DNA of 34,930 nt, taken from positions 1 to 34,930 of the forward strand of contig CAVWIG010000047.1 in assembly GCA_963754945.1 (NCBI GenBank), in the 5' to 3' direction. Position numbers and translations under genes: made by a program. Positions 1,200-26,854 of the stretch are shown here, one piece after another (the stretch's first letter is position 1; every line of letters starts with the position of its first letter). The notes under the pieces are model-generated. The model did not search any database. It saw only the letters and a program-made list of their open reading frames with translations, and was not told the origin of the DNA. Source of the stretch: Methanotrichaceae archaeon (GTDB lineage: Archaea; Halobacteriota; Methanosarcinia; Methanotrichales; Methanotrichaceae).

Positions 1200-2891
1200 A
1201 TGATAACGAATATTAATCATCAAGATAACAATATGCTGATCCCAGCTTTGATTAGGATTGGTGTGACTGGCCATAGAGATCTTAAAGATTCGGAATTAAT
1301 AAGGCGTAGTATAAGGGAAGCTCTCAATGAAATAGAAAATTTAATCAATAATTTAAGATATAATTGTGAATATACATTCTCAATACTTTCTCCACTAGCT
1401 GAAGGCGCTGATCGTCTAGTAGCCGAAGAAATTCTTAAGTGGCCTGGGAAAAAAGGAGACTTCAAACCGATTCTTGAGGCTGTGCTGCCATTTCCCGAAA
1501 CAGAATACATGCTTGACTTTAAGACTGAAGTTTCTAAGAGGGCTTTCAAAGATCTGTTGGATCAGGCGAAATCTGTCAAAGTTCTTACCCAAATAGGGCC
1601 TCGTAATGCAGCATACGAAAAAGTAGGGCGATACATCGTTAATGGCTGCGATCTTTTAATAGCAATATGGGATGGAAGTCCTGGTAAGGGAATAGGAGGA
1701 ACCGATGACATAGTCGATTATGCTCTCAAACGTAAAAGATACATAATATGGATAGACTCCGAGAGGGGAAAAATCAGGGATTATCCAGACATAAAAGCGA
1801 AGCTTAGATTCAAAAGTAATCTTGAATCAATTCTAAATCAGTTAGGTCGCTACAATAACGAACATATAGGCAGAAATAAGTCTAAATTCAATGTAGAAAT
1901 GGATCACTATTGCAATGAACTGATCGGAAATGCAGAGAATAATGGCATTTCTTCCGATGTCCTGAAGCCCATCATAGGGAGACCGATGTATCATTTGGTT
2001 AGGGCTAACATGTTAGCTGGCCTTTATCAAAAGTGCTACAATGAGATAGGATTCATAATCTACCTGTTTGCTGGAGCCTCAGTTCTGATTGTCCCCCTTC
2101 AAATTTTCTTTTTCCAACAATATGATAATTTGCTGTGGTTAGAAGTCTTTTTTATATCAATTGCAGTAATTTTATTTATATTATTAGAAAGATATTCTTG
2201 GCATAATAAATGGATTGAATATAGGCACTTAGCCGAGCAATTACGCGCTGCGATATTTTTCTCGCTGGCGGAAGACGCTAATAATCAGGATATATTTTCT
2301 AAACATGAAATCCCCAAATGTACTGTTGCAGGATCAACATCCTCTATAAGTAGTCCAAATTTTGTGATTAAATGGACAGAGTTAGCCGTTTCATGGATAA
2401 TGTTATCGCGACCTTTATCTCGAACAGAAATTCCAATTGAATCGCTCAGGAACTTTCTATCAGAGGCATGGATTTGTGATCAGCAATCCTATTACAGTAA
2501 TAAATGCCACGAATACCGATGGAAACATCTAGCGCTCGATGGGTTAGGTCTACTATTAATCTTAGCGACCATTTTTGCGGCAATTTTACATGCAAGTAAA
2601 ATTGAAATCCCTCCTCTAGGTCTCCGGGAAAGCCATCTTACTTTCGTAGCAATAGTGCTGCCGATAGCGGGTACAACAATTGCGGGCATTAGGGTCATTA
2701 AGGAATACATGCTTAATGCTGAGAGGTATAGGCATATGGCTAACCAACTCTCTGAGATTAAAAGTGAGATAAAACAAGCGAAAGATCTATCGAGTTTAAC
2801 TGAACTTGCCAAACATGCGCGAGACATTATGCTAGATGAACATGACGAGTGGCGTGTAGTTGTAAGCAGCACCGGCAAGCTCAATTTATGA
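1200..2891 (+). CDS. SLOG (YspA-like) nucleotide-binding domain fused to two SLATT/DUF4231-like 2TM modules
   Basis: SLOG motifs IGVTGHR, SPLAEGADRLVAE, EAVLPF and CDLLIAIWDG...GGTDDIVDYA. Two TM hairpins with SLATT-like signatures WIEYRHLAEQLR, WICDQQSYY and DEHDEW. Alternative start at ATG 1233. Confidence 0.75.
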   Translation: MITNINHQDNNMLIPALIRIGVTGHRDLKDSELIRRSIREALNEIENLINNLRYNCEYTFSILSPLAEGADRLVAEEILKWPGKKGDFKPILEAVLPFPETEYMLDFKTEVSKRAFKDLLDQAKSVKVLTQIGPRNAAYEKVGRYIVNGCDLLIAIWDGSPGKGIGGTDDIVDYALKRKRYIIWIDSERGKIRDYPDIKAKLRFKSNLESILNQLGRYNNEHIGRNKSKFNVEMDHYCNELIGNAENNGISSDVLKPIIGRPMYHLVRANMLAGLYQKCYNEIGFIIYLFAGASVLIVPLQIFFFQQYDNLLWLEVFFISIAVILFILLERYSWHNKWIEYRHLAEQLRAAIFFSLAEDANNQDIFSKHEIPKCTVAGSTSSISSPNFVIKWTELAVSWIMLSRPLSRTEIPIESLRNFLSEAWICDQQSYYSNKCHEYRWKHLALDGLGLLLILATIFAAILHASKIEIPPLGLRESHLTFVAIVLPIAGTTIAGIRVIKEYMLNAERYRHMANQLSEIKSEIKQAKDLSSLTELAKHARDIMLDEHDEWRVVVSSTGKLNL

Positions 2892-3049
2892 GTGAAATCG
2901 TATGCAAAGCAGATCTCTGCCGAAACATTAATATGCAGATCTTTGAACCTTGAGTTAACTCTGTAAAAGACAGATAAATCTGGGTTTCTATTGAGATGGA
3001 GTATCGTGAAATGACCAAGAGGATCAATTCTGTGATGGAGTGAAGGACT

Positions 3050-3697
3050 GTGTCAGTAAAGTACTCCTGTTTCATAAGTTATTGCCACGGTAAGCGGGAG
3101 CTAGTGTCGGAATTTATCCCGCAACTTAAAAAAACTTTGGAAGCCCACCTGGAACCATATCTTGAAGAAGAAGAATTAGAAGTGTTCTGCGACACTGAAG
3201 ACATCAATCCTGGGAATTTATACGAAGAGACTATCGCTCAGGCAATCTGTAATAGTCTTTGCATGATAGTAGTATATTCTCCCAAGTATGAACTTCACCA
3301 ATTCTGCCTTCGAGAGTTTCGAGCCATGGAGATCTTGGAAAAGAAGCGATTAAAACGTTTGGGAAAAAATGTACCTAAGGATTCAGGAATGATAATTCCC
3401 CTTATATGGAGAGGTGATATAGGAAACCTGCCACCAAGAATCTCAAACATTCGGCAACATTGTGATTTTACCAGAATTACTTGTGCGAGAAATCTCAGGA
3501 ATCAGCAAGCGTTAAAGAAAATTGATGATATAGCGCTATATATCTATAATCTATATAAATTTTTTGATAAATGTGGGTGGGATCCCTTCGAGAAATGTCC
3601 CTCATTCAGACTACCCGATGTTAACGAAGTTCCTCCGTTAAGGGATTCAAATAAGCCGCATTCAGCTCCCTTCCCTGGGAGATGGAGTGGTCCCTAA
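3050..3697 (+). CDS. TIR domain protein (TIR_2, FxsC-like) with the catalytic Glu intact
   Basis: CFISY, VFCD...INPG, MIVVYSPKY, FCLREF (WCxxE equivalent), IIPLIW. GTG start preceded by GGAGTGA. Confidence 0.88.
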   Translation: MSVKYSCFISYCHGKRELVSEFIPQLKKTLEAHLEPYLEEEELEVFCDTEDINPGNLYEETIAQAICNSLCMIVVYSPKYELHQFCLREFRAMEILEKKRLKRLGKNVPKDSGMIIPLIWRGDIGNLPPRISNIRQHCDFTRITCARNLRNQQALKKIDDIALYIYNLYKFFDKCGWDPFEKCPSFRLPDVNEVPPLRDSNKPHSAPFPGRWSGP

Positions 3698-5824
3698 ATG
3701 CTTCAAAAAAAAGCAGGCCAAGTAATAACTTTCTACTCCTTTAAAGGTGGAACAGGACGGTCGATGGCTCTGGCTAACGTCGCCTGCCTCTTGGCTCAGC
3801 ATCACATATATGGTGACAAAGGTGTGATAATGCTGGACTGGGATCTCGAGGCTCCGGGCCTGCACCGCTTCTTTCGGGATAGGTTCAACAAAGCCGAAGT
3901 GAAAAGTAAGGATTTAGTCGGCACTATTGAGGAGAGACCTGGGTTGATAGACCTCTTCTGGGAGATGAATAAGGAGCTAGAGGAGCTTTCTCTGTCAGCA
4001 GACAAGGAATGTATAACTGATGAGGATGAGTTCGTAATTAAATTGCTCAATAAAATCGATTTTAAAAGGTTTATTATAGAAACTGATATACCTAATTTAT
4101 ATATCATAAAAGCTGGTAGCTCAGGTGATCAATACTATTCTCGAATGCGCAGTTTCCCTTGGGAGTCGTTTTATAATCGGGCTCCATGGTTGATGAGAGC
4201 CTTTGCTGAGAGGCTATCAGAGCTTTATCAATACGTCCTGATCGATTCGCGCACTGGTCTCACAGATATAAGTGGCATATGCACAAAATTACTACCAGAA
4301 AAATTAGTTCTTGTTTTTACACCAAGCCGCCAAAGCTTAGACGGGGTATTGAATCTTGGCAGATGGGCGACTAACTACAGAATGGAATCAGATGATCTAC
4401 GACCTGTAATAATCTATCCTCTTCCTTCGCGAATAGAAGCTGCAGAACCCGAATTGCGGAGAATTTGGCGTTACGGAAGTGGAGATGAGATCAATGGATT
4501 TCAGCCACGATTCGAGAAACTCTTCGAGGAAGTCTACGAAATATCCGATTGCAACCTCGAACCCTATTTCAAAAAGATTCAGATACAGCATGTACCTCAC
4601 TATGCTTACGGGGAAGAAATTGCAGTACTGGATGAAGAGTGCAAGGACAGATTCTCTCTAACGGAGAGCTACGAGATCTTTACAAATTGGCTTGTGAACC
4701 TTTCAGGACCATGGGAGGCAAAAGATTCTATCAAGGCTGAGCCAAAGACCCTAATCGTAGATCAGATGTGCCGGACCGATTATAAGACGATAGGTGAAGC
4801 CATAATGGCAGCTAACCCTGGAGACGAAATCCTTGTGAGACCAGGCTTATATCAAGAGAGCCTTTTAGTTACCAAACCTTTGGAGATTGTAGGAGACGGA
4901 GATCGTGGTGATATAGTTATAAGGGCTGCAGACGGCAGCGTTATTACTTTCAGGACAACACGAGGTCGAATTTCGAATTTAACACTTCAGCAAGTAGGTA
5001 AAAAGGATTGTGTTGATATCTCAATGGGTAGATTGGATCTCGAAAATTGCGACATAACTAGTCAAGGTTCAGCATGCATTGGTATTAGTGGAGGCGCCGA
5101 CCCTAGGATCAGAAAATGTCTTATCCATGATAGCAGACAGAGTGGAGTCATTATCCATAATAGTAGCCAAGGTACGCTTGAAGACAATGAGATTTCTAGC
5201 AACTCTCTCACTGGAGTGGATATAAAGGAAGGGTCTCACCCCATTTTGCGCCGCAACAAGATTCATAATGGTAAGAATAGGGGAGTCTACATACATGAAG
5301 ATGGAAAAGGACTGATCGAGGAGAATGATATAACCAATAATGTAACTGGCGTAGAAATTAGCGGCGGTGGCAATCCTTTCCTGTCCCGTAATCGTGTTCA
5401 TGACTCTAGAAAAGATGGGATCTTGATTCAAAAGAAAGGCAAAGGTACATTGGAGGAGAACGATATCTACTCTAATGATTATGCTGGTGTGCGGATAAAG
5501 TCTGGTGGCGATCCGCTGATTATTCGAAATAAAATTCGCGATGGAAAAGGCGCCGGTGTATTCATCTTGGAAAAAGGCCATGGAAAGCTCGAAGATAACG
5601 AAATCTTTGGCAATACACATGATGGCATAGCTGTAGAAGAGGCTTATTGTTCAATACATCGAAATAAAATTTATCGAAATGGCTTCCATGGCATACATAT
5701 CCATTTCAACAGCAGAGGTCCTGATATCTCGGATAATGATTTGAGAGACAACCTAAAAGGAGCATTCCTTTTGCCTACTGATCGAAGTGGTTTAAAGCTC
5801 AAGCTATCTAATAACCTCGAATAA
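3698..5824 (+). CDS. ParA/MinD-like ATPase (KGGxGR variant) fused to a right-handed parallel beta-helix (NosD/PbH1-like)
   Basis: VITFYSFKGGTGRSMALANVA, LDWDLEAPGLHRFF, YVLIDSRTG, VPHYAYGEEIAV. The C-terminal half starts YKTIGEAIMAANPGDEILVRPGLYQE and continues with ~23-aa GVxIxxxxxG/PxLxxNxI repeats. Confidence 0.88.
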   Translation: MLQKKAGQVITFYSFKGGTGRSMALANVACLLAQHHIYGDKGVIMLDWDLEAPGLHRFFRDRFNKAEVKSKDLVGTIEERPGLIDLFWEMNKELEELSLSADKECITDEDEFVIKLLNKIDFKRFIIETDIPNLYIIKAGSSGDQYYSRMRSFPWESFYNRAPWLMRAFAERLSELYQYVLIDSRTGLTDISGICTKLLPEKLVLVFTPSRQSLDGVLNLGRWATNYRMESDDLRPVIIYPLPSRIEAAEPELRRIWRYGSGDEINGFQPRFEKLFEEVYEISDCNLEPYFKKIQIQHVPHYAYGEEIAVLDEECKDRFSLTESYEIFTNWLVNLSGPWEAKDSIKAEPKTLIVDQMCRTDYKTIGEAIMAANPGDEILVRPGLYQESLLVTKPLEIVGDGDRGDIVIRAADGSVITFRTTRGRISNLTLQQVGKKDCVDISMGRLDLENCDITSQGSACIGISGGADPRIRKCLIHDSRQSGVIIHNSSQGTLEDNEISSNSLTGVDIKEGSHPILRRNKIHNGKNRGVYIHEDGKGLIEENDITNNVTGVEISGGGNPFLSRNRVHDSRKDGILIQKKGKGTLEENDIYSNDYAGVRIKSGGDPLIIRNKIRDGKGAGVFILEKGHGKLEDNEIFGNTHDGIAVEEAYCSIHRNKIYRNGFHGIHIHFNSRGPDISDNDLRDNLKGAFLLPTDRSGLKLKLSNNLE

Positions 5825-5878: not shown

Positions 5879-7444
5879 CTAATTGACTCCATTATTGATT
5901 AGGCCGTTTTCTTTTAGTACTTTTTCGATAGATAGCAAACGCGACTCAATTGATATTAGTTGTTCTCCAGGTATGATCTCCATATCTGACTGTGATAGAT
6001 CTTCTACTTCTGGAAGGCTAAATATACTTAGCTCATCGTTGAAAATTTGCTTGTTTCCCTTCTCGATTCTTGATAAAGAGTCCTCCAGTTTAGTTAACAA
6101 ACCATTTGGCCCAAAGAAATAGTTCTCAAGGGCTTCTGTAGTCCTTGCTGGCATCTCTGACCTTATTAATCCCGTTCTATTAAATTCTATATATCTGATT
6201 GAATTTTCGATTATCCTATAAATGCGATTTTCGAATGTTCCTTTTATTCTATGATTTCCTGAGGACCCATATGGATTCCTCAACAGAATTAAAATCTCGT
6301 TATTCCCATTTCCTATTTTGCGCCAGACTTGTACGTCTTTCTCTAAAATCTTAGTTTGCAAGGCTATTGATTTTCGAATCGCTTCAGAACTAAGAAAACC
6401 TCTGGCGAAAACATATGCATTATCTGCATTTTTAGGGTCGCACGAGAATAATCGTCCCTTGTTAAGCGCGGATCTAACGAGTTCATCTTCGTGCCCTTTT
6501 TTATCATTATCGATCCAATAGCACGGGACGAGGATTGGTGGAACATTGAGTTTATTCGATTGCTGAAATTGCTCCTTTACGGCAAGGCTAGGGGCATCCT
6601 CTCCAGGATAGTTCCGCTGTGCAATAAGCGGCTTCATAGTTTGATAGATGAATTTATTCGCCTCATTATAATCATATCTAAATTTTTCCATGAGGATCTG
6701 ATTATCCACCAATATAAGGCCGTCAATACCCAACCCAGTTCTCTTTGTAAGGAGATCGTAGATCGAAATGACCGCTCCTAAATCTCTTTTCTCCTCTTTC
6801 GCTCCTTGTTGCTTGTCCTCTCCCTCTTCGGTTAGAATGCCCAGTACTAAGATAGGAAACTCTTTTCGCTCAGCCCTTATGTATCCTGTTATTGGATTGA
6901 TGAAACCAGTTCCGGTGCCTCCGCCTAGAGATACTATGAACAGTATCCCATCACTCAAGCCCGATCTATTTTGGTTCTCTTCAGTTTCTGCTAAGGTGGT
7001 ATATGGGCGTATAATCTTCCATGTATTCCTGAGGATCGGGTTATCAAAGCCAGACTCTCCTATTGCGACTCTTCGCAGCTCTTGATCAAAATCGAATATT
7101 TCGAAAATAGCCTTCAGATATTCTGCCTGTCTAAAGAAACCCTGCTTTTTTAGGTCGTACCCGTATTTATCCTGTATAAGGCGTGCAGTTTTCGACTCCG
7201 TATCGAGAACATCGTGAGGTATAAAGTAGAATGGATAATATGCATTTCCTAGAGAGTTAACTGGTTTAAAAAACTTCGTATTCTCTGTCTCTTGAACATC
7301 TGCCTCAAGCCATAATCCTTTTGCATCACCAAAGCAGATGTAATTTCCTAAATACGAGCTAAAGATAGGAACATCATGGTTCTCTAAGAATATCTCAGCT
7401 ATTTTACCTCCACAACCACCTATCCCTACTATTAAGAGTTTCAT
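5879..7444 (-). CDS. Divergent tubulin/FtsZ/CetZ-superfamily GTPase
   Basis: CetZ-like T1 loop MKLLIVGIGGCGGKIAE, tubulin signature SLGGGTGTG, GLILVDNQ. 521 aa with a helical C-terminal extension. Confidence 0.85.
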   Translation of the reverse strand: MKLLIVGIGGCGGKIAEIFLENHDVPIFSSYLGNYICFGDAKGLWLEADVQETENTKFFKPVNSLGNAYYPFYFIPHDVLDTESKTARLIQDKYGYDLKKQGFFRQAEYLKAIFEIFDFDQELRRVAIGESGFDNPILRNTWKIIRPYTTLAETEENQNRSGLSDGILFIVSLGGGTGTGFINPITGYIRAERKEFPILVLGILTEEGEDKQQGAKEEKRDLGAVISIYDLLTKRTGLGIDGLILVDNQILMEKFRYDYNEANKFIYQTMKPLIAQRNYPGEDAPSLAVKEQFQQSNKLNVPPILVPCYWIDNDKKGHEDELVRSALNKGRLFSCDPKNADNAYVFARGFLSSEAIRKSIALQTKILEKDVQVWRKIGNGNNEILILLRNPYGSSGNHRIKGTFENRIYRIIENSIRYIEFNRTGLIRSEMPARTTEALENYFFGPNGLLTKLEDSLSRIEKGNKQIFNDELSIFSLPEVEDLSQSDMEIIPGEQLISIESRLLSIEKVLKENGLINNGVN

Positions 7445-8049
7445 CTTGCCACCACCTTCTCCACGCGGATAAGGAATGGAGACAACAGTATGACCTCCGA
7501 TACTAGAAGTCCCAGGAAAGCAGCCAATTCTGTTAAGGCTGGCGAGCTGTTAGGATATAAAGTTCCTGCGTAAGCGGAGCAAAATAAAGATACACCTAAC
7601 AACGGAATTGTTCCCATGATAAATTTTTTTGTAGTCCAAGAAATTTCGTAAAAGCTATAAAACCGCGCGAAACTAGCGCCAATTAATCCAGTCACAAGAA
7701 TCACTATAGCGCCAAGTATGAAGAAGCCAAGTGGGCTTGACGCTAAATCTGGAACACGGAAATAGTTTATACTAAACACGGTAGGTGTCAGAAAATAGAA
7801 ATATGCAATTGTCACAAAAAGAAGGCTCCATGCACTGATCGCTATTGCAATGAAATTCGAGCCCTGTGATTGTGACATCACCTCGTAAAGGAGTTCTCTC
7901 GAAATATGGCCTTTGGAGAGGCTTGATATCCTTTTGTAAACTCTTTCAAGATTATATATATGAAGCAGTATACCAAAAATCAAGAATCCCACAACTAGAA
8001 GCAATGTCAGGGGACTCAATAGCATTTGTATTAGACTTTCCAGATCCAT
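7441..8049 (-). CDS. Multipass membrane protein (about 5 TM helices), unknown function
   Basis: Several long hydrophobic segments. Likely ATG at 8049 just after the upstream stop (the track start is 8082). Its stop overlaps the tubulin start (ATGA). Confidence 0.75.
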   Translation of the reverse strand: MDLESLIQMLLSPLTLLLVVGFLIFGILLHIYNLERVYKRISSLSKGHISRELLYEVMSQSQGSNFIAIAISAWSLLFVTIAYFYFLTPTVFSINYFRVPDLASSPLGFFILGAIVILVTGLIGASFARFYSFYEISWTTKKFIMGTIPLLGVSLFCSAYAGTLYPNSSPALTELAAFLGLLVSEVILLSPFLIRVEKVVAR

Positions 8050-8053
8050 GAGA

Positions 8054-9517
8054 TTACTTCCCCCTTCTTCTATAGAACCCACGCTCCACTAGGACACCAA
8101 CCAGCAGGGATAATGTCATAATAAGCGATAGGTTTACGATCATCTCTGGGGCATAGATGGAATATCTCACAAGTTTGGTATTGATGCTTTCCGGTCCATC
8201 AATAATTGCTGATCCAGAGTTTCCGTTCTCATCCGGCAGAGAGTACTTGAAATAGTATCTGAACATTTGGCCGCAGTCTGCTACATCGAAAGGTTGAATG
8301 TCCTTAAAGGATACATCTTCGAATTTGTCGCCCGGTATGGGAACGGTCTGAGATGTTATATATCTCTGGGGGTGAGCAGGAGTATCTGTGTATAGACTCA
8401 CAGTTAACATCCCTCCATCAGGATTTTGGCTCTTTGCTTTGAACCCAAAGTTGTACTTCTGCCACCAGTAGTAGTTGTTATCCTCAGGATCCACAACTAT
8501 GTCTTTTGTTTTCATCATTGGGTTACGCTTCAAATGCGGTCCATCTCTAATCTCAGTCCATGTGGTGTTTTTGCCACCTAATACACCATCACTACAGGAA
8601 TAACGATAGCTGAAATTCTTGCCAGAGTCTTTTTCACTGAAAATATTCTTGTCTTTAGTGCTGAATTCTATTTTATCACCTAACTGGAACAATTTGGTTA
8701 TATTATTGGTTTCAATCCTATTGTTGAGAATATGGAGGGTTACACGTCTCATATCTTTTTTCAGATCAGTGTACGATGTGTTTTGAACCTTGTTGTCCAA
8801 AGTAGCAGTGTACTGAATAGTGTCGTCCCAGTTTGCAGGATCTGGGTTCACTAACATAGACGTATTGTTGATTTGTGGGGGAATGTTATAGACGTTGAGC
8901 GCCAGTTCGTGATAATATCCGTTTTCTGGATCATCTTTTTGAATGCTTGAATCGTATTTGTATTGCCCGTCTGTGACATAGATCTTTAATCGAACATCGC
9001 CTACTCGCCCGAGATAGTCAAAAGAGCTAAGTTCGGGAAAGATACGCAGGGATGTGTTTTCTCTACCGTCGTACTCGTTAACCTGAATTATCTGAGTGGC
9101 TACTTTGGCTGGTTTGAAGCTGCTCTCCCCTGGTTCCTGTATTTCTAGGGTTAAATATAGAGCCCTCCTGAGCTCAATAGGATTGGTGTTCACAACCAAG
9201 GCACCTATTTCTATTGGATCGTATCTAGAGATCGTCTTGTTTTTGGTGGGATAGTATAACCAGACTCCGGGCGGGACGTAATTTGTGGTTGTGAAGCTCT
9301 GTTTATAAAGTAGCGTTTTCAAGTAATCAAACCTATCCGGATAATTGGTCTTCCAGCTCTCCACTTGCCTGATGAAGTTCTCTATATCAGGAGACCTGCT
9401 TCCGCCTCCGCTGCTGCTTATTGTGACTTTTTTTGGGGGGGAGGGATGTATGTCACCTAAAGCGACAATGGTAAATAAACAAGTTGCCACGAGGAGAAGT
9501 ACCAAACTCTTCCTCAT
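8054..9517 (-). CDS. Secreted protein with a C-terminal membrane anchor
   Basis: Signal peptide MRKSLVLLLVATCLFTIVALG; Asn/Thr/Tyr-rich body with many NxS/T sequons; C-terminal TM helix + GFYRRRGK. TGATG overlap with the upstream gene. Confidence 0.8.
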   Translation of the reverse strand: MRKSLVLLLVATCLFTIVALGDIHPSPPKKVTISSSGGGSRSPDIENFIRQVESWKTNYPDRFDYLKTLLYKQSFTTTNYVPPGVWLYYPTKNKTISRYDPIEIGALVVNTNPIELRRALYLTLEIQEPGESSFKPAKVATQIIQVNEYDGRENTSLRIFPELSSFDYLGRVGDVRLKIYVTDGQYKYDSSIQKDDPENGYYHELALNVYNIPPQINNTSMLVNPDPANWDDTIQYTATLDNKVQNTSYTDLKKDMRRVTLHILNNRIETNNITKLFQLGDKIEFSTKDKNIFSEKDSGKNFSYRYSCSDGVLGGKNTTWTEIRDGPHLKRNPMMKTKDIVVDPEDNNYYWWQKYNFGFKAKSQNPDGGMLTVSLYTDTPAHPQRYITSQTVPIPGDKFEDVSFKDIQPFDVADCGQMFRYYFKYSLPDENGNSGSAIIDGPESINTKLVRYSIYAPEMIVNLSLIMTLSLLVGVLVERGFYRRRGK

Positions 9518-11232
9518 CAATATCTCCTCTCATCTACCCGGATGGTTGGGTGCCATGGCTGGTTCTCCCATTTGAGGGTAATCCAAGGCGGTTGATCGCT
9601 GGAATTATTTCCTAGTGTATAGTTTCTGAAAAGGCCGGATCTCTTCCAGGTAACAGAGTCGTCGGAAAACATCAGCTCCATCTCTACCTTGGGGAGGCTT
9701 GACCTGACCTCTGCGGAATAATCAAGGTTGGAATCCGGGCGATTCCTGGCGCTTTCGTTACGTACTGCCACGTCTATCTTCGGCCCTGGGAACTCCCCCA
9801 GGACTGAATTGTCCATTACCAATCTGTATTTGCCAACTCCAAGAACCTCTGGGGAACTCCGGAAAGACAGATCGGGCCATTTCAGAACGTTGTAGCTCAT
9901 GCTGTACGTTTGCCTTCCTTGAGCCTGCCAGATAGTGCTGTTCGGTGGCTGTATTTCCAGGCCTATATCACAAGCCGATTTGGTGGTAGTTATTCTGGCC
10001 GTATAGCTGAAGGGCGTGTAGATGGACCCGTTAGCCGGGGTTACGTTGGCTTCGATCTCCCAGCTATTCACATATGGGCCTTGATAGTCCTGGCCCAACA
10101 TATCCTTGGTGGAGTTGAAGCTTTCTGCTGAGCCGGGATAATGGAAACTGAAGTTGTAGCTTGATTGGCCAGCCACATCCTCATTGGAAGTGACTTTGAT
10201 GCCTGACCAGGTAAGCTGCTCCCAAGTAGAGCTGTTCACGTAGCTCTTGGCTCCTGCCAGGAAGTACTTCCCTGTCCCTGGGTCCAGCACATTCAATCCG
10301 ACATCAATTGGTTTGGACGCGTTGAGTTCTAGGCCGTAACTGAACTCCGTCCTCGGAGTTCCATTCAGAGGTGACAGAGTGTTATTCCTGAACTGCAGTG
10401 TTATCGGCCAGACTGGACCAACCTTGGGCTGCGACTCTATCCTGCCCACGAATCTGTAGTAAGCGGCATTAAAATCGAAGTTCAGGCTCTTGTTATTCCA
10501 GTATAGTGTCTGGTAGCTGCCTGGTGTAGAGTACTCCCGTTTGTCCAGATCAATCCAGGGGACGTTTTGGGACGGTCTGACCTGCAATGTTATGTTATCT
10601 TTGTAGCTTCCCAGTATCGTTACCTTATAACTGTAGAGATTCTCGTTCGTCCCTTGTTTTGGGCTGACGTCAGCATCACTATATTCGAAGATTGTTTTCA
10701 TCAATTGAGGATGGCCACTATAATCTTCAAGTGGCACAAGCTGTTCTCTAAATTGACTGATTTCGGCATGATACCAGGCCCTGTCCCATATTCTTGCGTC
10801 GTTCTTATCTTTGAGCCATTGGTTAAACTCGCCTTGATTGATGCTAGAATCATGGAAATTGACGCTAAATGCAATGATTTTCGTCTGGTGCGGGTCGACG
10901 AAAATGTCACTTTTGGTTTGTCCTAAATATGTCGAGGGGTTGTCTTTATCTGGACCTACCTTTAGTGTAACGCTATAGCTCAGGGTGGAACTCTGTTCAT
11001 TGGTAATTGGTATATTATATGTGACAGTACCGTCTACAGATAGAGGCTCTGCAGTCGAGCCTCCTTGCGAAAAAGAGACTTGGCACAAGGCCGTAGTGGT
11101 TAAAAGCATCATAACGGCACCGACGAGCATAACTAATTTGATGTAAGTCACTCTTACCACGCTCAACTCAGGACACGCTTTAAGGAAGCCAGTTCTCTTT
11201 ATTAAGTTTTTGGCGCAGGCATCCGATTCCAT
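9517..11232 (-). CDS. Secreted protein with about four ~100-aa beta-rich repeats
   Basis: Hydrophobic signal LVMLVGAVMMLLTTTALC (true start probably downstream of 11232). Repeats VSPKQG..YSY, LSPLNG..FSY, VTPANG..FSY. Confidence 0.78.
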   Translation of the reverse strand: MESDACAKNLIKRTGFLKACPELSVVRVTYIKLVMLVGAVMMLLTTTALCQVSFSQGGSTAEPLSVDGTVTYNIPITNEQSSTLSYSVTLKVGPDKDNPSTYLGQTKSDIFVDPHQTKIIAFSVNFHDSSINQGEFNQWLKDKNDARIWDRAWYHAEISQFREQLVPLEDYSGHPQLMKTIFEYSDADVSPKQGTNENLYSYKVTILGSYKDNITLQVRPSQNVPWIDLDKREYSTPGSYQTLYWNNKSLNFDFNAAYYRFVGRIESQPKVGPVWPITLQFRNNTLSPLNGTPRTEFSYGLELNASKPIDVGLNVLDPGTGKYFLAGAKSYVNSSTWEQLTWSGIKVTSNEDVAGQSSYNFSFHYPGSAESFNSTKDMLGQDYQGPYVNSWEIEANVTPANGSIYTPFSYTARITTTKSACDIGLEIQPPNSTIWQAQGRQTYSMSYNVLKWPDLSFRSSPEVLGVGKYRLVMDNSVLGEFPGPKIDVAVRNESARNRPDSNLDYSAEVRSSLPKVEMELMFSDDSVTWKRSGLFRNYTLGNNSSDQPPWITLKWENQPWHPTIRVDERRY

Positions 11233-13409: not shown

Positions 13410-14591
13410 GTGCACCATAACGCAAGTTTTAAATCTTATAAAAGGTCTAGAATATAGATTGTGGCAAGAAAAACAAAATTCTGTGTGAAACTGGAAGAGA
13501 AAGAACGAGAAGAGTTGAACCAGTACATCCGTCGTGGGAAGTCGTCTGCAAGGAGTTTAACTCGCGCAAGAATACTGCTCCTGGCCGATGGAGGGCAATC
13601 CGATGCGGAGATCATTGATGCATTGAAGGCGAGCAGAACGACAATAGTGAGGATAAGAAAGAGATATTTCGAGGGTGGCCTGGAATCTGCATTGAATGAA
13701 AGATCTCGCAGTGGAGCGCCTCCGAAGATAGATGCACGAGTTGAGGCTAAACTGACCGGCATTGCTTGCTCAGATCCGCCTGAAGGCAGATCGAGATGGA
13801 CGCTGAATCTATTGGCCGACAAGCTTGTTGAGCTGGGGGAAGTGGACTCGATCTCAGGAATGAGCGTTTGCAGAGCGTTAAAAAAAATGAAATAAAGCCA
13901 TGGCTCAAACAGCGATGGTGCATAGGGAGCATGACGAGCGAATATATCTGGAACATGGAAAATGTATTAACTCTGTACGAGCAACCATATGATCCGAGGC
14001 ATCCTGTGGTTTGTTTCGACGAGAGGCCATGCCAACTGATAGGCGATGTCTTAGTGCCTATACCCATGAAACCAGGCAGTCCGAAGAAGGTGCATTATGA
14101 ATACGTCCGTAACGGGACATGTTGCATCCTTATTGCTTTTGATCTTCATGCAGGAAAAAGAATGATTCGTGTCATGGAGCACAGGACAAGGGTGGACTAC
14201 GCCCATTTCATGAAAGAACTTACCCAGCAATATCCAGGTGTAGAATCCATTCGATTGGTCCAGGATAATCTCAATACGCATACTTCAGGCTCATTTTATA
14301 ATGCTTTTGCGCCTGAAGAGGCGTTTGAGCTGGCTAAGGAGTTCGAATATTATTATACGCCAAAGAAAGGTAGCTGGCTCAACATGGCTGAGATAGAACT
14401 CTCAGCCCTATCGAAGCAATGCCTCGATCGTCGGATTGGAGACATCGATACTTTAACCAAAGAGGCTTCGGTGTGGGCACAAGAACGTAACGCAAAAAAA
14501 ACTACTGTAAGATGGAAATTCACGAAGAATGATGCAAGATTAAAGCTAAACAGGCATTATATTAATTTGCAAAATTAATGTTATGGTGCAC
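13410..14591 (+). mobile_element. IS630-family insertion sequence, complete
   Basis: Terminal inverted repeats GTGCACCATAAC (13410-13421) and GTTATGGTGCAC (14580-14591), extending imperfectly inward. Flanking TA at 13408-13409 and 14592-14593, each in a CTAG context. Confidence 0.93.
13461..14578 (+). CDS. IS630 transposase, orfA (13461-13895) + orfB joined by a -1 frameshift
   Basis: HTH region RARILLLAD...WTLNLLA. DDE residues in CFDERP, VQDNLNTH and WLNMAEIE. A8 run at 13880-13887 gives LKK/NEIKPW. Confidence 0.9.
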
Positions 14592-16102: not shown

Positions 16103-17512
16103 CTGTACTTTCCAACTTTTTCGTATATTTATAATATCATCAGATTAAATTAGAATATAAATTTAATAAAAAAAATAAAAAGTAAGGGTTTTATACTAGG
16201 ATCAAATTCTCTCTTTTGGGAGTAGAATGATCAAAATAATAAAGGTACCATTACAATTAGAGCCGTTCTTGAATGAATTTCAGGATCTTTTTACGAAACC
16301 GAGTTATGGATCGTTTCGAGATTTGTGTGGAGCGTTAAGCGTGTGTGATAAATCCAAGACCGTTTCCAACCTTTGTGATACTATGGCCGAATGTAGGAAA
16401 GGAAAAAAAGCACGCTCTTCGTACAATTGGTTCTTTAGCGATGCGAATTGGGACGAGGATGAAGTTGCTCAACGCAAAGTGGACCTTTTTATTGAGAAAT
16501 TATGTTTAAAAGAAAATGATAGAATGTTGTTAATAATTGATGACACATACAATGAGAAGGAAGGAACTCAAACGGAAGGTGTAGGAAAATTTTATGATCA
16601 TAGTAAAGAAACCTACATTTGGGGTAACAATTTTGTTACCTCTGTTATCCAATCCAAAGGATTATTCATACCACATAAAGCTAAGATGTATATCAAGAAT
16701 GATGACGAAAATGAGAATTTTAGAACAAAAATGGAGATTGCCTTGGACGAGATCATTGAACCATTAGAAGTACCAAAAAGCATGGACCTTTATATCGTTT
16801 TCGATAGCTGGTGGTTTTCTTCTGATCTCTTTAACAAGTGTCTCAAATTAGGGCATAATATAGTCTGCCAAATCAAATCTGATAAGAAAATCAGGATAAA
16901 TAAGGACATGTGTTTTCAGGTTAGAGACTTAGCAAACCAAATTGAGGATAAGTATTTTATTAAGACAACTATTAGTGTTCGGGGCAAAAAGAAGACCTAC
17001 TATGCATTTGAAAAGAAGGTAGTCATAGACAAGGTAGGCGAAGTTAAACTTGTAGTCTCAAAGAGAAAAAAGGAGAGCACTACAAAATATTTTATAAGCA
17101 CTAATGAATCGCTTTCGTCGAAAGAAATACTCTCAATTTACGAGGATAGATGGGATATCGAGACGGCCCACAGAGAGACAAATCAAAAATTAGGATTCAA
17201 AGATTACCAATTAAGAGAAAAACAATCAATTGAAAGATTTATTCAGCTAGTCTTCTCAGTATGGACTGCGATTCTCTTATGGGAAATAGACAATCCGCCA
17301 TCTGGGGACGGTTCAAATCCAAGAACTATGGGCGACATGATCGACCTAGTAAAAATGCAAGCATTAGGTGAAACATTTGAATATGTGCTGATGTATTTTA
17401 ATATACCCGTACCGGAAGGCGGATTGCTTTATATACTCAGAAGCATGGGATTGAAAATATAATTTGATATAATTTAGAAAATATAAATAAAGGAGAAACT
17501 TGGAAAGTACAG
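16103..17512 (+). mobile_element. IS701-like (IS4 superfamily) insertion sequence with an 11-bp target duplication
   Basis: 20-bp TIRs: CTGTACTTTCCAACTTTTTC (16103-16122) versus the reverse complement of GAGAAACTTGGAAAGTACAG (17493-17512), 18/20 match. Direct repeat TAACCGTCCAT at 16092-16102 and 17513-17523. Confidence 0.92.
16227..17462 (+). CDS. DDE transposase, IS701-like
   Basis: LIIDDT, VFDSWW, YEDRWDIETAHRETNQKLGFKDYQLR. Confidence 0.9.
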   Translation: MIKIIKVPLQLEPFLNEFQDLFTKPSYGSFRDLCGALSVCDKSKTVSNLCDTMAECRKGKKARSSYNWFFSDANWDEDEVAQRKVDLFIEKLCLKENDRMLLIIDDTYNEKEGTQTEGVGKFYDHSKETYIWGNNFVTSVIQSKGLFIPHKAKMYIKNDDENENFRTKMEIALDEIIEPLEVPKSMDLYIVFDSWWFSSDLFNKCLKLGHNIVCQIKSDKKIRINKDMCFQVRDLANQIEDKYFIKTTISVRGKKKTYYAFEKKVVIDKVGEVKLVVSKRKKESTTKYFISTNESLSSKEILSIYEDRWDIETAHRETNQKLGFKDYQLREKQSIERFIQLVFSVWTAILLWEIDNPPSGDGSNPRTMGDMIDLVKMQALGETFEYVLMYFNIPVPEGGLLYILRSMGLKI

Positions 17513-23658: not shown

Positions 23659-24240
23659 ATACCCCGCAGCTTGCTGCGGGGATGAGCATGAAAACCGACT
23701 TAAGGGTAGTTGCATATTCGGCTTATGGTTAAATTAGGAAGGGCGAATCATTGCGTGTACAAAATTAGGTATCACATGGTTCTATGTATAAAGTATAGAA
23801 AGAAATTACTTTCTGGAAATAATAAGATTGAATATTTCAAGTATATTTGCTCAGAATTGGGAGAACGATATCAATTTGTATTTGATGCCATTGGGACTGA
23901 TGGAGATCACATACATATTTTCGTTGGAGCAGCTCCAAAGCATTCGCCATCAAGGATTATGCAAATAATAAAAAGCATAACCGCAAGAGAAATTTTCAAA
24001 AGATTTCCTGAAATCAAAAAAGCACTTTGGGGCAGCGAATTTTGGAGCGATGGGGGATATATTGGGACGGTAGGTGATGGGATATTATCGGACATAATTC
24101 GCAATTATGTCGAAATGCAAGGAACAACGGAAGAAAAAGAAGGATTTATGCAAATGAGTTTGCTTGAATTCGATTAACTTGGCGGCGGCGGGAACATGCC
24201 CCGCCTGCTTGCAGCGGGGTCCGCCGCCGCAACGTTTGAC
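23659..24240 (+). mobile_element. IS200-type element (TnpA only)
   Basis: Left hairpin CCCCGCAGC-TT-GCTGCGGGG (23662-23681) and related right hairpin CCCCGCCTGC-TT-GCAGCGGGG (24199-24219). No tnpB. Exact ends are approximate. Confidence 0.85.
23725..24177 (+). CDS. tnpA: IS200/IS605 Y1 (HUH) transposase
   Basis: YHMVLCIKYRK, DHIHIFV (HUH), LWGSEFWSDG, IRNYVEMQ (catalytic Tyr). Alternative TTG start at 23710. Confidence 0.94.
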   Translation: MVKLGRANHCVYKIRYHMVLCIKYRKKLLSGNNKIEYFKYICSELGERYQFVFDAIGTDGDHIHIFVGAAPKHSPSRIMQIIKSITAREIFKRFPEIKKALWGSEFWSDGGYIGTVGDGILSDIIRNYVEMQGTTEEKEGFMQMSLLEFD

Positions 24241-26275: not shown

Positions 26276-26854
26276 ATGCTTGATTATCCGATGATCTCCA
26301 GAATATACATCTCTCATGCCGAGCAGGACGAAGAACTGGCTCAAGAGCTCTCCAGGGCTCTGTGGAGAGTGGGGCTGGAGAGCTATGCTGCAATGTACAA
26401 GCTCAGCCCGGGTATATCCAGGGCAGAGCGGGTGTCTTTTGGAATTCGCAACTCTGATTGCCTGGTAGCCCTGCTGACCAAGGACGGCTCGGCCTCAGCC
26501 ACAGTGTGCCAGGAGATAGGCCTGGCCAGGGGCATTGATCTGCTAGTTATACCACTGTTGGAAGAAGATGCCTATTTGCCTTTTCTTATAGAGCATCTAA
26601 AGCCTATCGTCTTCTCCAGGCCTGAAATCAGCGACGCAATAGGGAAGCTGATAAGAACGCTCCGTGATTTGAGCAGTTTAGACTGGCTGAAGGTGACCTG
26701 TCCGAAATGCGGGGAGGAGATGACCCAGTACCTGACTCCTCAGGAAGATGTCGACGAGGCCCTACAGAAAGGCTCCTGTCTGGAGACGATCTGCAGCTAC
26801 TGCCAGAACAAGGTATCCTTGGACCCCAGGACCTTTGCACCGCTGCCAAAATGA
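26276..26854 (+). CDS. TIR domain protein with a C-terminal zinc ribbon
   Basis: IYISHA..D, SDCLVALLT, VCQEIGLA (catalytic Glu), VIPLL, then CPKC...CSYC. Alternative start at 26291. Confidence 0.85.
   Translation: MLDYPMISRIYISHAEQDEELAQELSRALWRVGLESYAAMYKLSPGISRAERVSFGIRNSDCLVALLTKDGSASATVCQEIGLARGIDLLVIPLLEEDAYLPFLIEHLKPIVFSRPEISDAIGKLIRTLRDLSSLDWLKVTCPKCGEEMTQYLTPQEDVDEALQKGSCLETICSYCQNKVSLDPRTFAPLPK

Follow-up and report, generated by a model that had tools for sequence, protein, structure and literature searches.

Three neighbouring genes at positions 1200–5824 of an archaeal contig raise the question of whether a SLOG-SLATT membrane protein, a TIR protein and a ParA ATPase act as one signalling system or as two systems that lie side by side. 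The window, that is the whole stretch of DNA analysed, comprises 34,930 nucleotides of a Methanotrichaceae archaeon (contig CAVWIG010000047.1). A preliminary description of the sequence had reported three co-oriented, AT-rich genes encoding a SLOG-2xSLATT protein, a TIR with its catalytic Glu and a KGGTGR ATPase with a beta-helix. The three open reading frames (gA, gB and gC) were recovered at 1200–5824 on the + strand, all of them low in GC, and every domain call proved right. The motifs GVTGHR (gA), FCLREF (gB) and KGGTGRS (gC), which it had quoted, are readable in the translations.

The GC content is 38–43% between 1 and 9 kb of the window and mostly 45–56% in the remainder. A spacer of 158 bp (2892–3049) separates gA from gB. 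Inspection of its sequence revealed neither a long T-run nor a hairpin terminator, and a terminator scan, which was of the bacterial type and gave counts not above those of shuffles, returned no terminator in it. A separate promoter for gB could sit within this spacer. The TAA of gB is directly abutted by the ATG of gC, as read at the junction. Genes around the trio are mostly housekeeping genes or transposases and not known defence genes; a PGF-CTERM protein is encoded at 3–713, and an ISC1217-type transposase is among the window genes, both of which fit an archaeal origin.

gB and gC as a TIR-ParA pair

The gB gene (3050–3697, + strand, GTG start) encodes a small TIR protein of 215 aa that belongs to a ParA-coupled, 'TIR-FC'-like clade. 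Its TIR domain (aa 4–139) matched TIR_2 with 46.8 bits (cut-off 28). The catalytic residue, Glu89 (nt 3314–3316), is invariant across all 129 other aligned TIR domains. In a quick IQ-TREE phylogeny, gB groups with all 73 TIRs found upstream of ParA genes (SH-aLRT of the split 96%). It likewise scored 174 bits with a profile HMM of the ParA-upstream TIRs versus 46.6 bits with one of the TIRs adjacent to SLOG-SLATT genes. ThsB models matched gB weakly (E 0.035).

The gC gene (3698–5824, + strand) encodes a protein of 708 aa. Its N-terminal ParA/SIMIBI ATPase domain (3698–4732) is of the KGGTGR variant and matched AAA_KGGVGR (NF047398) with 120.9 bits (cut-off 90); the Walker A motif KGGTGRS (K16–S22, nt 3743–3763) can be read in the translation. 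Compared with 5883 relatives, the domain is 49–61% identical to the best 119, and fusions to TIR_2, nSTAND or TPR domains are frequent among these. The C-terminal part (aa ~350–708, 4745–5824, + strand) forms a right-handed parallel beta-helix and is predicted to be a cytoplasmic sensor. It was recognized by Beta_helix of Pfam (E 1.6e-46) and, in five stretches, by the para_beta_helix repeats of NCBIfam, and was modelled with a pLDDT of 95–98 over aa 350–708. Beta-helices of the gC type are also fused to FxsC-like TIRs (P0246, P0247 and P0253; 45–49% identity), to a Ser/Thr kinase (P0242; 37% identity) and to KGGVGR ParA domains (P0241 and P0255). The gC beta-helix is thus a recurrent sensor module.

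The arrangement of the two genes was examined in 80 metagenome loci encoding the ParA clade of gC. A TIR gene (~200–230 aa) lies upstream on the same strand and within 300 bp of the ParA gene in 72 of them. No third gene recurs in these 80 loci, the biggest neighbour cluster (8/80) being housekeeping synteny, and the TIR-ParA dyad is therefore self-sufficient as a rule. At the nearest archaeal TIR-ParA locus (G328, L222), housekeeping genes occupy the place of gA.

Complex modelling supports binding between the two proteins. A model of the ParA domain (aa 1–345) with gB reached an ipSAE of 0.69 (best control 0.00); in calibration, 58 of 80 solved complexes attained the ipSAE mark, as did 2 of 110 mismatched pairs, counts that apply only roughly here because custom alignments were used. 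At least 77% of the contacts are common to the runs, and the pLDDT of the partner does not fall below 77. The lowest-error contacts are made by the C-terminal tail of gB (aa 205–213, APFPGRWSG; 3662–3688, + strand), a predicted ParA docking segment that is conserved, along with its FP motif, in an alignment of 36 sequences. We conclude that gB and gC very probably constitute a TIR-ParA dyad, in which translational coupling links a small TIR, predicted to be catalytically competent, to a KGGTGR-variant ParA with a beta-helix sensor, the tail of the TIR being the predicted site of binding to the ParA.

gA and its association with TIR genes

The gA gene (1200–2891, + strand) encodes a SLOG-2xSLATT protein of 563 aa, a predicted ligand-gated membrane effector. 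Its second SLATT_1 hairpin (aa ~413–559, 2436–2876, + strand) matched the Pfam model (PF18181) with 31 bits, above the cut-off of 26.3. The NCBIfam model (NF033634) matched two stretches of gA with 66.1 bits (cut-off 41). For the first SLATT-like hairpin (aa ~250–362, 1947–2285, + strand), SLATT_1 gave an E-value of 4.3e-6 at nt 2025–2282, and DUF4231 remained under its cut-off with 21.9 bits. The four TM-like segments of the protein make up two hairpins (aa 280–306 with 308–334, and aa 442–470 with 479–501). With scores above curated cut-offs and two-TM hairpins present, gA is a SLATT_1 protein.

The N-terminal domain (aa ~13–230, 1236–1889, + strand) was missed as a SLOG domain by all sequence-profile libraries searched, including Pfam and NCBIfam, and was identified by Foldseek, a check suggested in the preliminary description, together with conserved motifs. 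An AlphaFold2 model of gA (pLDDT 86.3, pTM 0.86) matched structures of the SLOG superfamily, namely YpsA (2nx2; probability 1.00, TM-score 0.70 on the target), the SLOG domain of ThsA (7uxs; probability 0.99), DprA, ShosA and the Moco carrier protein. The motifs GVTGHR, SPLAEGADR and WDG..GGT are present, and their GxTGHR, AEGAD and GGT cores are kept across 38 homologues, in which G21, T23, G24, H25, R26, S64, L66–D71, W157, G164 and G167 are invariant. Fold model and motifs agree in giving gA a YpsA-like, Rossmannoid SLOG fold with glycine-rich, predicted nucleotide-binding loops. The protein is a full-length member of a family of 1308 proteins (E<=1e-3, among 8000 scored candidates), of which the closest non-self relative is 40% identical. 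The RTasSLATT model of PADLOC matched it weakly (E 0.004).

The gA family shows an affinity for TIR genes. Of 80 loci, 38 have a TIR gene no more than 600 bp from the gA homologue, and 54 have one inside the flanks of ±8 kb; in 16 of the 80, the nearest TIR is at 0.6–8 kb, a much larger range. The remaining 26 homologues have no TIR inside ~8 kb. The adjoining TIRs belong to a different clade from gB in the tree. They are 190–1465 aa in size, mostly long, and have sensor-like domains of their own such as WD40 and CARDB. The proposal that the TIR feeds a SLOG-SLATT effector is thus supported at the level of the family (38/80 loci), but gB itself comes from the other, ParA-coupled clade.

A second trio was not found. 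The 80 gA-family loci contained no ParA match, the 80 ParA loci contained no SLOG-SLATT match, also at a relaxed threshold, and none of 25 loci from the archaeal phylum of the window had all three genes. Conserved co-occurrence of a gB-type TIR with a SLOG-SLATT effector was not observed in these samples, in which only pairs recur. A single protein (P0223) brings related parts together: its ParA domain is of the clade of gC (53% identity) and is fused to LSDAT-SLOG, DUF4231 and SLATT_1. Considering that no second trio exists among the searched loci, that gB is of the ParA-coupled clade and that the pairs are of known kinds, the three-step signalling model of the preliminary description is possible for this single locus, but does not describe a conserved system.

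Proposed mechanism and alternatives

We give a little better than an even chance to the view that this is a hybrid locus made up of two recurrent conflict modules of two genes each, with one TIR common to both. The likeliest reading of its function, at about an even chance, is that the ParA-gated TIR serves both as an NADase and as the signal source for a SLOG-SLATT pore. The beta-helix of gC, which is of a polysaccharide-binding type, would sense an infection-associated ligand, and the ParA domain would then act as an NTP-dependent switch by which the TIR of gB is freed or activated to cleave NAD+. The SLOG domain of gA would bind an ADP-ribose-type product of gB, and the SLATT hairpins would open or oligomerise, so that the membrane collapses. 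The outcome may be abortive infection or dormancy through NAD+ loss and membrane failure. That gA forms such an added layer, reading the gB product and opening its SLATT hairpins, we regard as evenly balanced or marginally favoured. In support of a shared TIR are the proximity of the gA family to TIR genes, the P0223 fusion, the precedent of Thoeris types I and VII, and the low chance of the adjacency: the genome of the window (2.97 Mb) contains five TIR_2 genes and one SLATT gene, which puts chance adjacency at ~10^-3 if genes are placed at random. Against it stand the absence of the trio from the other loci searched, the different TIR clades, the possible promoter in the spacer and a second TIR gene in the window (26276–26854), which is of the 'A-type'.

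The main alternative, which we consider a serious contender of clearly lower probability, is that gB and gC are a complete NAD+-depleting abortive-infection module and gA is an unrelated, stand-alone neighbour. The gA protein would then answer another nucleotide signal, possibly from another TIR of the genome such as that at 26276–26854, and would have arrived in the same low-GC island as the dyad. Consistent with such independence, the dyad occurs without a SLOG-SLATT gene in all 80 ParA loci and in its closest archaeal relative. Homologues of gA, in turn, are free of TIR genes inside ~8 kb in the 26 loci given above and in all 15 gA-homologue loci retrieved from the phylum of the window, where ParA is likewise absent inside ~8 kb, and are present in all sampled genomes of two archaeal families (6/6 and 7/7). 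The TIR at 26276–26854 scored 56.1 bits with the HMM of gA-associated TIRs and gave no score with the ParA-coupled set, the clade difference pointing the same way; three transposase genes separate this TIR from the gA-gB-gC region. What argues against independence is the small chance that the sole SLATT gene adjoins one of five TIR genes, the same-strand position of gA and gB at a distance of 158 bp with no terminator seen between them, the strong tendency of the gA family to occur near TIR genes and the existence of a ParA-SLOG-2xSLATT fusion.

Two further explanations were weighed against the shared-TIR model. An improbable one holds that gA is the sole killer and gB a pure second-messenger synthase as in classical Thoeris, with NAD+ depletion irrelevant and the ParA-beta-helix protein substituting for the in-cis sensor region of ThsB-type TIRs. 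In line with this idea, most TIRs that adjoin a gA homologue are long and have sensor-like domains of their own, and gB is only a TIR with a short tail; the direct fusion of gC-type beta-helices to FxsC-like TIRs, in the manner of an in-cis sensor, fits as well. However, in none of the 80 loci is the TIR-ParA dyad accompanied by a separate effector gene, which argues that the TIR clade of gB is itself the effector. Still less probable, and in our view very unlikely, is that the locus has nothing to do with conflict: the ParA-beta-helix protein would function in the biology of polysaccharides or of the cell envelope, as do BY-kinases or beta-helices of the AlgG/NosD type, and the TIR and gA would serve housekeeping signalling. 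Fold searches lend this some appeal, the ATPase of gC matching BY-kinase folds besides ParA folds, and its beta-helix having AlgE4/AlgG epimerases, alginate lyases and phage tailspikes as best structural matches; the neighbourhood, mostly of housekeeping genes or transposases and not of known defence genes, also fits. Yet gC has neither a signal peptide nor a TM segment, and in 76 of the 80 loci its ParA clade is linked with TIR genes; the fusion partners of the clade are STAND, TPR, WD40 and TIR domains. The sporadic distribution (10 of 401 phylum genomes, that of the window included) and the position of the locus inside a low-GC island likewise speak against this reading.

Comparison with known systems

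The preliminary description had recognized no named system in this combination. This no longer holds for its parts, the TIR with the ATPase corresponding to the TIR-ParA apoptosis system and the TIR with SLATT to Thoeris type VII, as far as the accessible parts of the two preprints describe them. The three-gene combination was found nowhere else searched, whereas the dyad and the TIR+SLATT pair are of kinds already known.

According to the accessible part of their preprint, TIR-ParA apoptosis systems were described by Li, Burroughs and Aravind in October 2026 as a computational prediction only; it also contains the switch model for the dyad, stresses multicellular bacteria and equates the same ParA clade with FxsT (bioRxiv 10.64898/2026.10.19.760177). 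The pair gB and gC shares with that description a small upstream TIR whose active site is intact and whose gene abuts that of a ParA with a variable C-terminal sensor, as well as the TIR and ParA clades, the gene order and the overlap. Coupling to an upstream TIR, a TIR-linked ParA clade with a TIR of the TIR-FC type, and a C-terminal sensor were all found here. The pair differs in that the sensor is a parallel beta-helix, absent from the main-text subtypes and without a mention in word searches of the preprint (10.64898/2026.10.19.760177), that neither TIR-FT nor a STAND module is fused to gC, that the window is archaeal and that a SLOG-2xSLATT gene lies upstream, outside the system as described in that part of the preprint.

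The actinobacterial FxSxx-COOH (Fxs) cluster is similar in that gB matches the N-terminal TIR model of FxsC and gC falls in the FxsT-equated clade, but gB has no FxsC-C domain and gC no TIR-FT. Membership of this cluster was rejected, since FxsC_Nterm (NCBIfam) gave gB 44.4 bits, well under its cut-off of 130, and no radical-SAM, FxsB-like match was found among the window ORFs scanned. Assignment to the candidate system PDC-M28 of PADLOC was rejected as well: PDC-M28B matches only the P-loop region of gC (aa 7–58, E 4.9e-17), and gA and gB were unmatched.

In the pairs of SLOG-2xSLATT and TIR genes (38/80 loci), gA finds its own effector family as a full-length member, but the TIR there is of the other clade and usually has sensor-like domains of its own, and ParA is absent in 80 of 80 loci. 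Networks of SLOG, SLATT and TIR proteins in nucleotide signalling were reportedly predicted by Burroughs et al. in NAR in 2015.

Thoeris offers a precedent for gA. In the accessible part of the preprint on type VII, a ThsB TIR is paired with the SLATT effector ThsH, the signal is canonical cADPR, and types I and VII are examples of SLOG-sensed and SLATT-executed TIR signalling (bioRxiv 10.64898/2025.12.03.692087). ThsH is annotated there with SLATT only and has its ligand pockets between SLATT protomers (bioRxiv 10.64898/2025.12.03.692087). The likeness to type VII, by that description, is a TIR gene adjoining that of a SLATT membrane effector, for which oligomerisation upon binding of a TIR product is proposed. 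It differs from the present locus, ThsH being compared by its description, in that gA has an N-terminal SLOG and two SLATT repeats, and gB is of the ParA-coupled clade and accompanied by an ATPase. With type I (ThsB and the SIR2-SLOG protein ThsA), gA would share the use of SLOG as a receptor for a TIR-made ADPR isomer; it differs in the lack of SIR2, in a SLOG nearer to YpsA and in an effector part that is membrane-spanning. Common to Thoeris and this locus is a TIR with a catalytic Glu (gB) beside an effector with a predicted ligand-sensing domain (gA).

Gene layout and the TIR-ATPase pair

The cassette comprises three open reading frames on the plus strand, gA (1200-2891, 563 aa), gB (3050-3697, 215 aa, GTG start) and gC (3698-5824, 708 aa), in agreement with the preliminary description in every detail. 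The initial residues of gB (MSVKYSCFISY) agree with the start of an archaeal homologue in locus L222, the ATG of gC directly follows the TAA stop codon of gB, and gA and gB are separated by 158 bp that contain no long T-run. Promoter and terminator scans of the window, which are of bacterial type while the host is archaeal, yielded counts no higher than those of shuffled sequences. The window is an entire contig (G000:C47, 34,930 bases) of a 2.97 Mb assembly of 54 contigs that is 87.7% complete, and an archaeal host fits in view of a PGF-CTERM protein (3-713) and an ISC1217-type transposase. The GC content is 38-43% in the first ~9 kb and mostly 45-56% beyond. Since no known defence genes flank gA-gB-gC in the window, the region is not a typical defence island. 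Transposase genes (DDE_3, 13868-14578; ISC1217/DDE_5-like, 16227-17462; IS200/Y1, 23710-24177) are scattered among housekeeping genes, which encode RNase HII, FeoAB, ribosomal proteins L3 and L2 and a TrkA-type K+ channel. Within the low-GC part that also holds gC, a four-gene operon on the minus strand (5879-11232) is convergent on gC. It encodes proteins of 571, 488 and 213 aa (the last multi-TM) without a family, and a 521-aa divergent tubulin/FtsZ-superfamily protein, which scores 31.6 bits on Pfam Tubulin, slightly below the cut-off, and whose closest Atlas cluster is archaeal, with Tubulin in half of its members.

According to our analysis, gB and gC very probably constitute a TIR-ParA module with a beta-helix sensor. 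The preliminary description did not recognize the three-part combination as a named system; of its parts, the TIR-ATPase pair matches the TIR-ParA apoptosis system put forward in October 2026 (Li, Burroughs & Aravind, bioRxiv 10.64898/2026.10.19.760177). That preprint describes a ParA fused to diverse sensors and preceded by a TIR whose active site is intact (TIR-FC, as in FxsC); its authors propose a relay in which the sensor acts on ParA and ParA in turn activates the TIR, whereupon NAD+ is destroyed. The individual domains were read correctly beforehand. gB carries a TIR_2 domain followed by a tail of ~75 residues, and its presumed catalytic Glu89 (in FCLREF) is invariant in every aligned TIR; in an alignment of 36 small TIRs of full length, Glu89 and Tyr80 are the sole two invariant columns, and a C-terminal tail that ends in an FP motif is shared. 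gC, described as a KGGTGR ATPase with a beta-helix, scores above the cut-off for the NCBIfam KGGVGR-variant AAA ATPase and contains parallel beta-helix repeats.

At E<=1e-5, the search with the gC ParA domain recovered 5883 relatives (8000 candidates scored). The top 119 non-self matches show 49-61% identity over 345 residues, and their C-terminal partners include TIR_2, nSTAND, TPR, WD40 and FGE-sulfatase domains, among others. Among 80 metagenome ParA loci (L086-L165, the best 80 of 586 confirmed stretches), 72 have a small same-strand TIR gene ending within 300 bp of the ParA start, typically encoding 200-230 aa and usually overlapping ParA by a few bases. A ParA-fused TIR occurs in 18 of the 80 loci, and a TIR is absent from four, in three of which ParA lies at a contig edge. 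In a quick IQ-TREE tree of 130 TIR domains, gB is placed among all 73 ParA-upstream TIRs (separating branch, 96% SH-aLRT), and it scores 174 bits against an HMM of the ParA-upstream set. The main split separates gB from all 40 TIR domains of the 38 gA-family loci in which a TIR lies no more than 600 bp away. ParA-fused TIRs cluster with these SLOG-SLATT-associated TIRs (15 of 16 on the same side), apart from the upstream TIR-FC. By alignment only, a Glu equivalent to gB Glu89 is present in 16/16 filtered ParA-fused TIR domains of L086-L165; the fused form (TIR-FT) is said to lack the former active site in the accessible preprint text (10.64898/2026.10.19.760177). Membership of the cluster in the Fxs peptide system was also considered and rejected: gB scores 44.4 bits on FxsC_Nterm against a cut-off of 130, and the window ORFs scanned gave no radical-SAM match.

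Modelling of the ParA domain in complex with gB supports binding between the two (ipSAE 0.69 as the median of three runs, best control 0.00; at least 77% of contacts agreeing between runs; partner pLDDT at least 77). In the calibration of the method, 58 of 80 solved complexes attained the mark, as did 2 of 110 mismatched pairs, counts that are only approximate here because our own alignments were supplied for the model. In the predicted complex, the conserved gB tail (aa 205-213) would dock on ParA residues 155-160, 188-198 and 223-236.

The model of gC forms a beta-helix over aa 350-708 (pLDDT 95-98), which in structure searches is most like the alginate epimerases AlgE4/AlgG, alginate lyases and phage tailspikes, and the N-terminal part resembles ParA and BY-kinase domains. 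As gC lacks a TM segment, the beta-helix should be cytoplasmic. Among 1.84 billion representative proteins, the combination of ParA (KGGVGR) and beta-helix was also found in P0241 (46% identity) and P0255 (39%); relatives of the beta-helix are fused directly to an FxsC-like TIR in P0246, P0247 and P0253 (45-49%) and to a Ser/Thr kinase in P0242 (37%). Within the top 120 ParA relatives of another database, Beta_helix was detected in the window's own protein only. The beta-helix is thus a recurrent module on TIR, ParA and kinase proteins, and the main text of the TIR-ParA preprint, whose supplements may list such a subtype, mentions no beta-helix sensor.

The SLOG-2xSLATT protein and its neighbours

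The reading of gA as a SLOG domain fused to membrane hairpins held up. Its C-terminal half matches SLATT_1 above curated cut-offs, the first repeat is SLATT_1-like (E 4.3e-6), and hydropathy reveals four TM-like segments, that is, two hairpins. The N-terminal 230 residues were recognized by none of the sequence libraries scanned. In an AlphaFold2 model built from 38 homologues (pLDDT 86.3, pTM 0.86), the best structural match is YpsA (2nx2, prob 1.00, TM 0.70 on the target), with further matches to DprA, ShosA and Moco-carrier/LOG-type proteins and to the 3'cADPR-bound SLOG domain of ThsA (7uxs, prob 0.99). All of these are SLOG-superfamily members, which on the evidence of the model assigns gA to the same fold. 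The motifs GxTGHR, S.LAEGAD and W.G...G.GGT are invariant across the 38 homologues. YpsA of B. subtilis has been reported as a cell division inhibitor; that YpsA is the closest fold to the gA SLOG and that a tubulin-like gene lies nearby may be coincidence.

In general, members of the gA family are strongly associated with TIR genes. There are 1308 relatives at E<=1e-3 (8000 candidates scored), and those listed are almost all full-length, 29-40% identical and mostly bacterial. Of 80 loci from genomes, chosen as the best among 555 confirmed stretches, 54 contain a TIR gene in the ±8 kb flank according to an iterated TIR HMM. The distance to the closest TIR is at most 150 bp in 33 loci, 150-600 bp in 5, 0.6-2 kb in 7 and more than 2 kb in 9; among the nearest cases, four are ORF calls that overlap in high-GC DNA. 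Direct phmmer searches with the window's TIR, ParA and beta-helix against the ORFs of these loci returned one weak, zero and zero matches, the low TIR count being a sensitivity artefact in light of the later HMM result. Both gene orders and both orientations are seen, and the TIR partners are 190-1465 aa long, often with WD40, CARDB or zinc-ribbon-like regions.

RyR-domain proteins replace the TIR as neighbours in 18 of the 80 loci (L008, L010, L011, L024, L030, L032, L034, L047, L048, L052, L059, L063, L065, L067, L078, L079, L081 and L085). These proteins are large and combine RyR with an AAA/STAND-like ATPase, with RelA_SpoT, TPR and LSDAT-SLOG, or with TrkA_N; fusions of the gA-type SLOG to RyR proteins, about 1100 aa in length, occur as well. 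RyR proteins therefore look like a second recurrent partner class of SLOG-2xSLATT effectors. A search for longer, fused forms of gA retrieved 20 proteins, one of them a STAND-SLOG-2xSLATT protein (P0350) and others fusing only the SLOG domain to AAA or RyR proteins; a fusion to TIR or ParA was found in none of the 20.

Linkage of gA to the TIR-ParA pair

A conserved neighbourhood of all three genes, proposed as a check in the preliminary description, was not recovered in any of the sets examined. Across the 80 gA-family loci, the only match of the ParA HMM was a weak one involving its TIR portion, and the 80 ParA loci gave no match to the gA-family HMM with the threshold relaxed to E<0.1. Beside the TIR-ParA pair, with at least 1 kb of upstream sequence in 46 of the 80 loci, no recurrent third gene was seen, the largest neighbour cluster covering 8 loci with the look of housekeeping synteny. 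Of 401 genomes sampled from the window's phylum (the window's own included), 10 carry the KGGVGR family and 19 gA homologues, and the trio is absent from the 10 KGGVGR and 15 gA-homologue loci fetched. Only two of these KGGVGR loci are of the TIR-ParA type (L184 and L185/L222), both without a SLOG-SLATT gene. The relatives nearest to gB and gC are in L222, where a 216-aa ORF lies ahead of the TIR and, further upstream, a 1064-aa ORF whose N-terminal residues look like those of an aminoacyl-tRNA synthetase. Gene gA homologues occur in every sampled genome of the archaeal families f26 and f27 (6/6 and 7/7; loci L193-L206 and L213-L221), with the match mostly confined to the 2xSLATT half, and no TIR or ParA was found in the flanks of the 15 loci fetched. 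These f26/f27 genes thus look vertically conserved, in contrast to the sporadic occurrence of a defence gene, which may point to a role outside defence for some 2xSLATT proteins. Genes related to gA are present in 22 of 401 Chloroflexota genomes; of the 21 re-searched, a single one encodes a KGGVGR ParA, and does so on another contig. The three genomes with L012, L019 and L021, including the 22nd Chloroflexota genome, gave no KGGVGR match. Viral contigs contained only four distant ParA relatives (26-35% identity) and, among 61 pattern matches, no gA relative, and so show no sign of a virus-borne system.

The main rival to a joint system, that gA and the gB-gC pair are independent neighbours, is a serious though on balance doubtful explanation. 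The trio does not recur, the pair is self-sufficient elsewhere, gA homologues stand alone in archaea, gB belongs to a different TIR clade from the gA-associated TIRs, and the 158-bp spacer also fits separate genes. Furthermore, the window holds a second TIR_2 gene of the sort that accompanies gA homologues (26276-26854, plus strand, 192 aa, 51.7 bits), which has a C-terminal CxxC...CxxC zinc-ribbon-like tail, scores 56.1 bits on the HMM of gA-associated TIRs and does not score on the ParA-coupled set. This could be the proper TIR type for gA, 23 kb away with three transposase genes between. It is followed by a gene (26969-27928, plus strand) whose ogg/AlkA-like glycosylase match is weak and well under the cut-off (E 2.2e-13). 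However, the genome has a single SLATT gene and five TIR_2 genes, the others outside the window being at G000:C41:3-329 (minus strand), C17:271229-271591 and C30:38077-38358, one of them cut by a contig end, and the chance of a SLATT and a TIR gene lying 158 bp apart under random placement is about 10^-3. The general affinity of the gA family for TIR genes likewise speaks against mere adjacency, as do two fusions. P0223 (936 aa) joins a ParA of the gC clade (53% identity) to an LSDAT-type SLOG, DUF4231 and SLATT_1, which, judged from its domains, is the receptor-effector layout of gA on the same ATPase clade, and P0350 indicates that the SLOG-2xSLATT module can couple to NTPase sensors.

A candidate pathway and its relation to known systems

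A working hybrid of the gB-gC pair with gA has, in our estimate, about an even chance of being correct, and we infer each of its mechanistic steps. The beta-helix sensor and ParA switch would activate gB, whose cleavage of NAD+ would both deplete NAD+ and release an ADPR-type ligand; this could be bound by the YpsA-like SLOG domain of gA, after which the two SLATT hairpins may breach the membrane. Precedents come from a Thoeris preprint of the Sorek group, in which 3'cADPR is read by SLOG in type I and a SLATT effector responds to a cADPR signal in type VII (bioRxiv 10.64898/2025.12.03.692087). The Aravind group has predicted that SLATT is an ADPR-regulated pore, and a link of YpsA-clade SLOG domains to NAD/ADP-ribose has been offered as a suggestion (PMC6459960). 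The stricter version, an archaeal three-part pathway in which ParA/beta-helix gates a TIR-FC-type TIR and a diffusible NAD+-derived messenger leads the YpsA-type SLOG to open a double-SLATT pore, is plausible but falls somewhat short of even chances. Because no second example was found, the three-part system stays hypothetical.

If true, this three-part pathway would be the first Thoeris-like system under ParA regulation, TIRs of the TIR-ParA apoptosis class could generate signals beyond consuming NAD+, and P0223 would be a fused form of the same pathway. TIR-ParA systems are so far a purely computational class, predicted a month ago. For the question of whether their TIRs only burn NAD+ or also signal, the locus offers a natural test case, with a minimal pair (a 215-aa TIR and one ATPase-sensor protein) beside a receptor-effector of the type that, in Thoeris, reads TIR products. 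Should gA respond to gB, two families of TIR immunity would be connected and TIR signalling would gain an NTPase checkpoint, in an archaeon. To our knowledge, such signalling systems have barely been studied in archaea. If the genes are mere neighbours, the finding shrinks to a new sensor subtype of a known class. Possibly of use to the field are also the SLOG-2xSLATT family, with an adjacent TIR gene in roughly half of the loci sampled, the recurrence of the beta-helix module and the predicted ParA docking of the conserved small-TIR tail.

PADLOC (2023) named none of the three genes or their relatives, so that no match to an already named system was obtained from it. In the literature searched, no paper on SLOG-SLATT together with TIR-ParA was found, though a SLOG-SLATT effector might be listed among the 29 putative Thoeris types in the preprint supplements, and the term KGGVGR did not occur. 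Compared with known systems, the parts and both pairings, TIR with ParA and SLOG-SLATT with TIR, are of known kinds. New are the beta-helix sensor subtype, within the visible text of the TIR-ParA preprint, the one-off placement of the pair beside a SLOG-2xSLATT gene in an archaeon, and the docking of the gB tail on ParA as predicted by the complex model.
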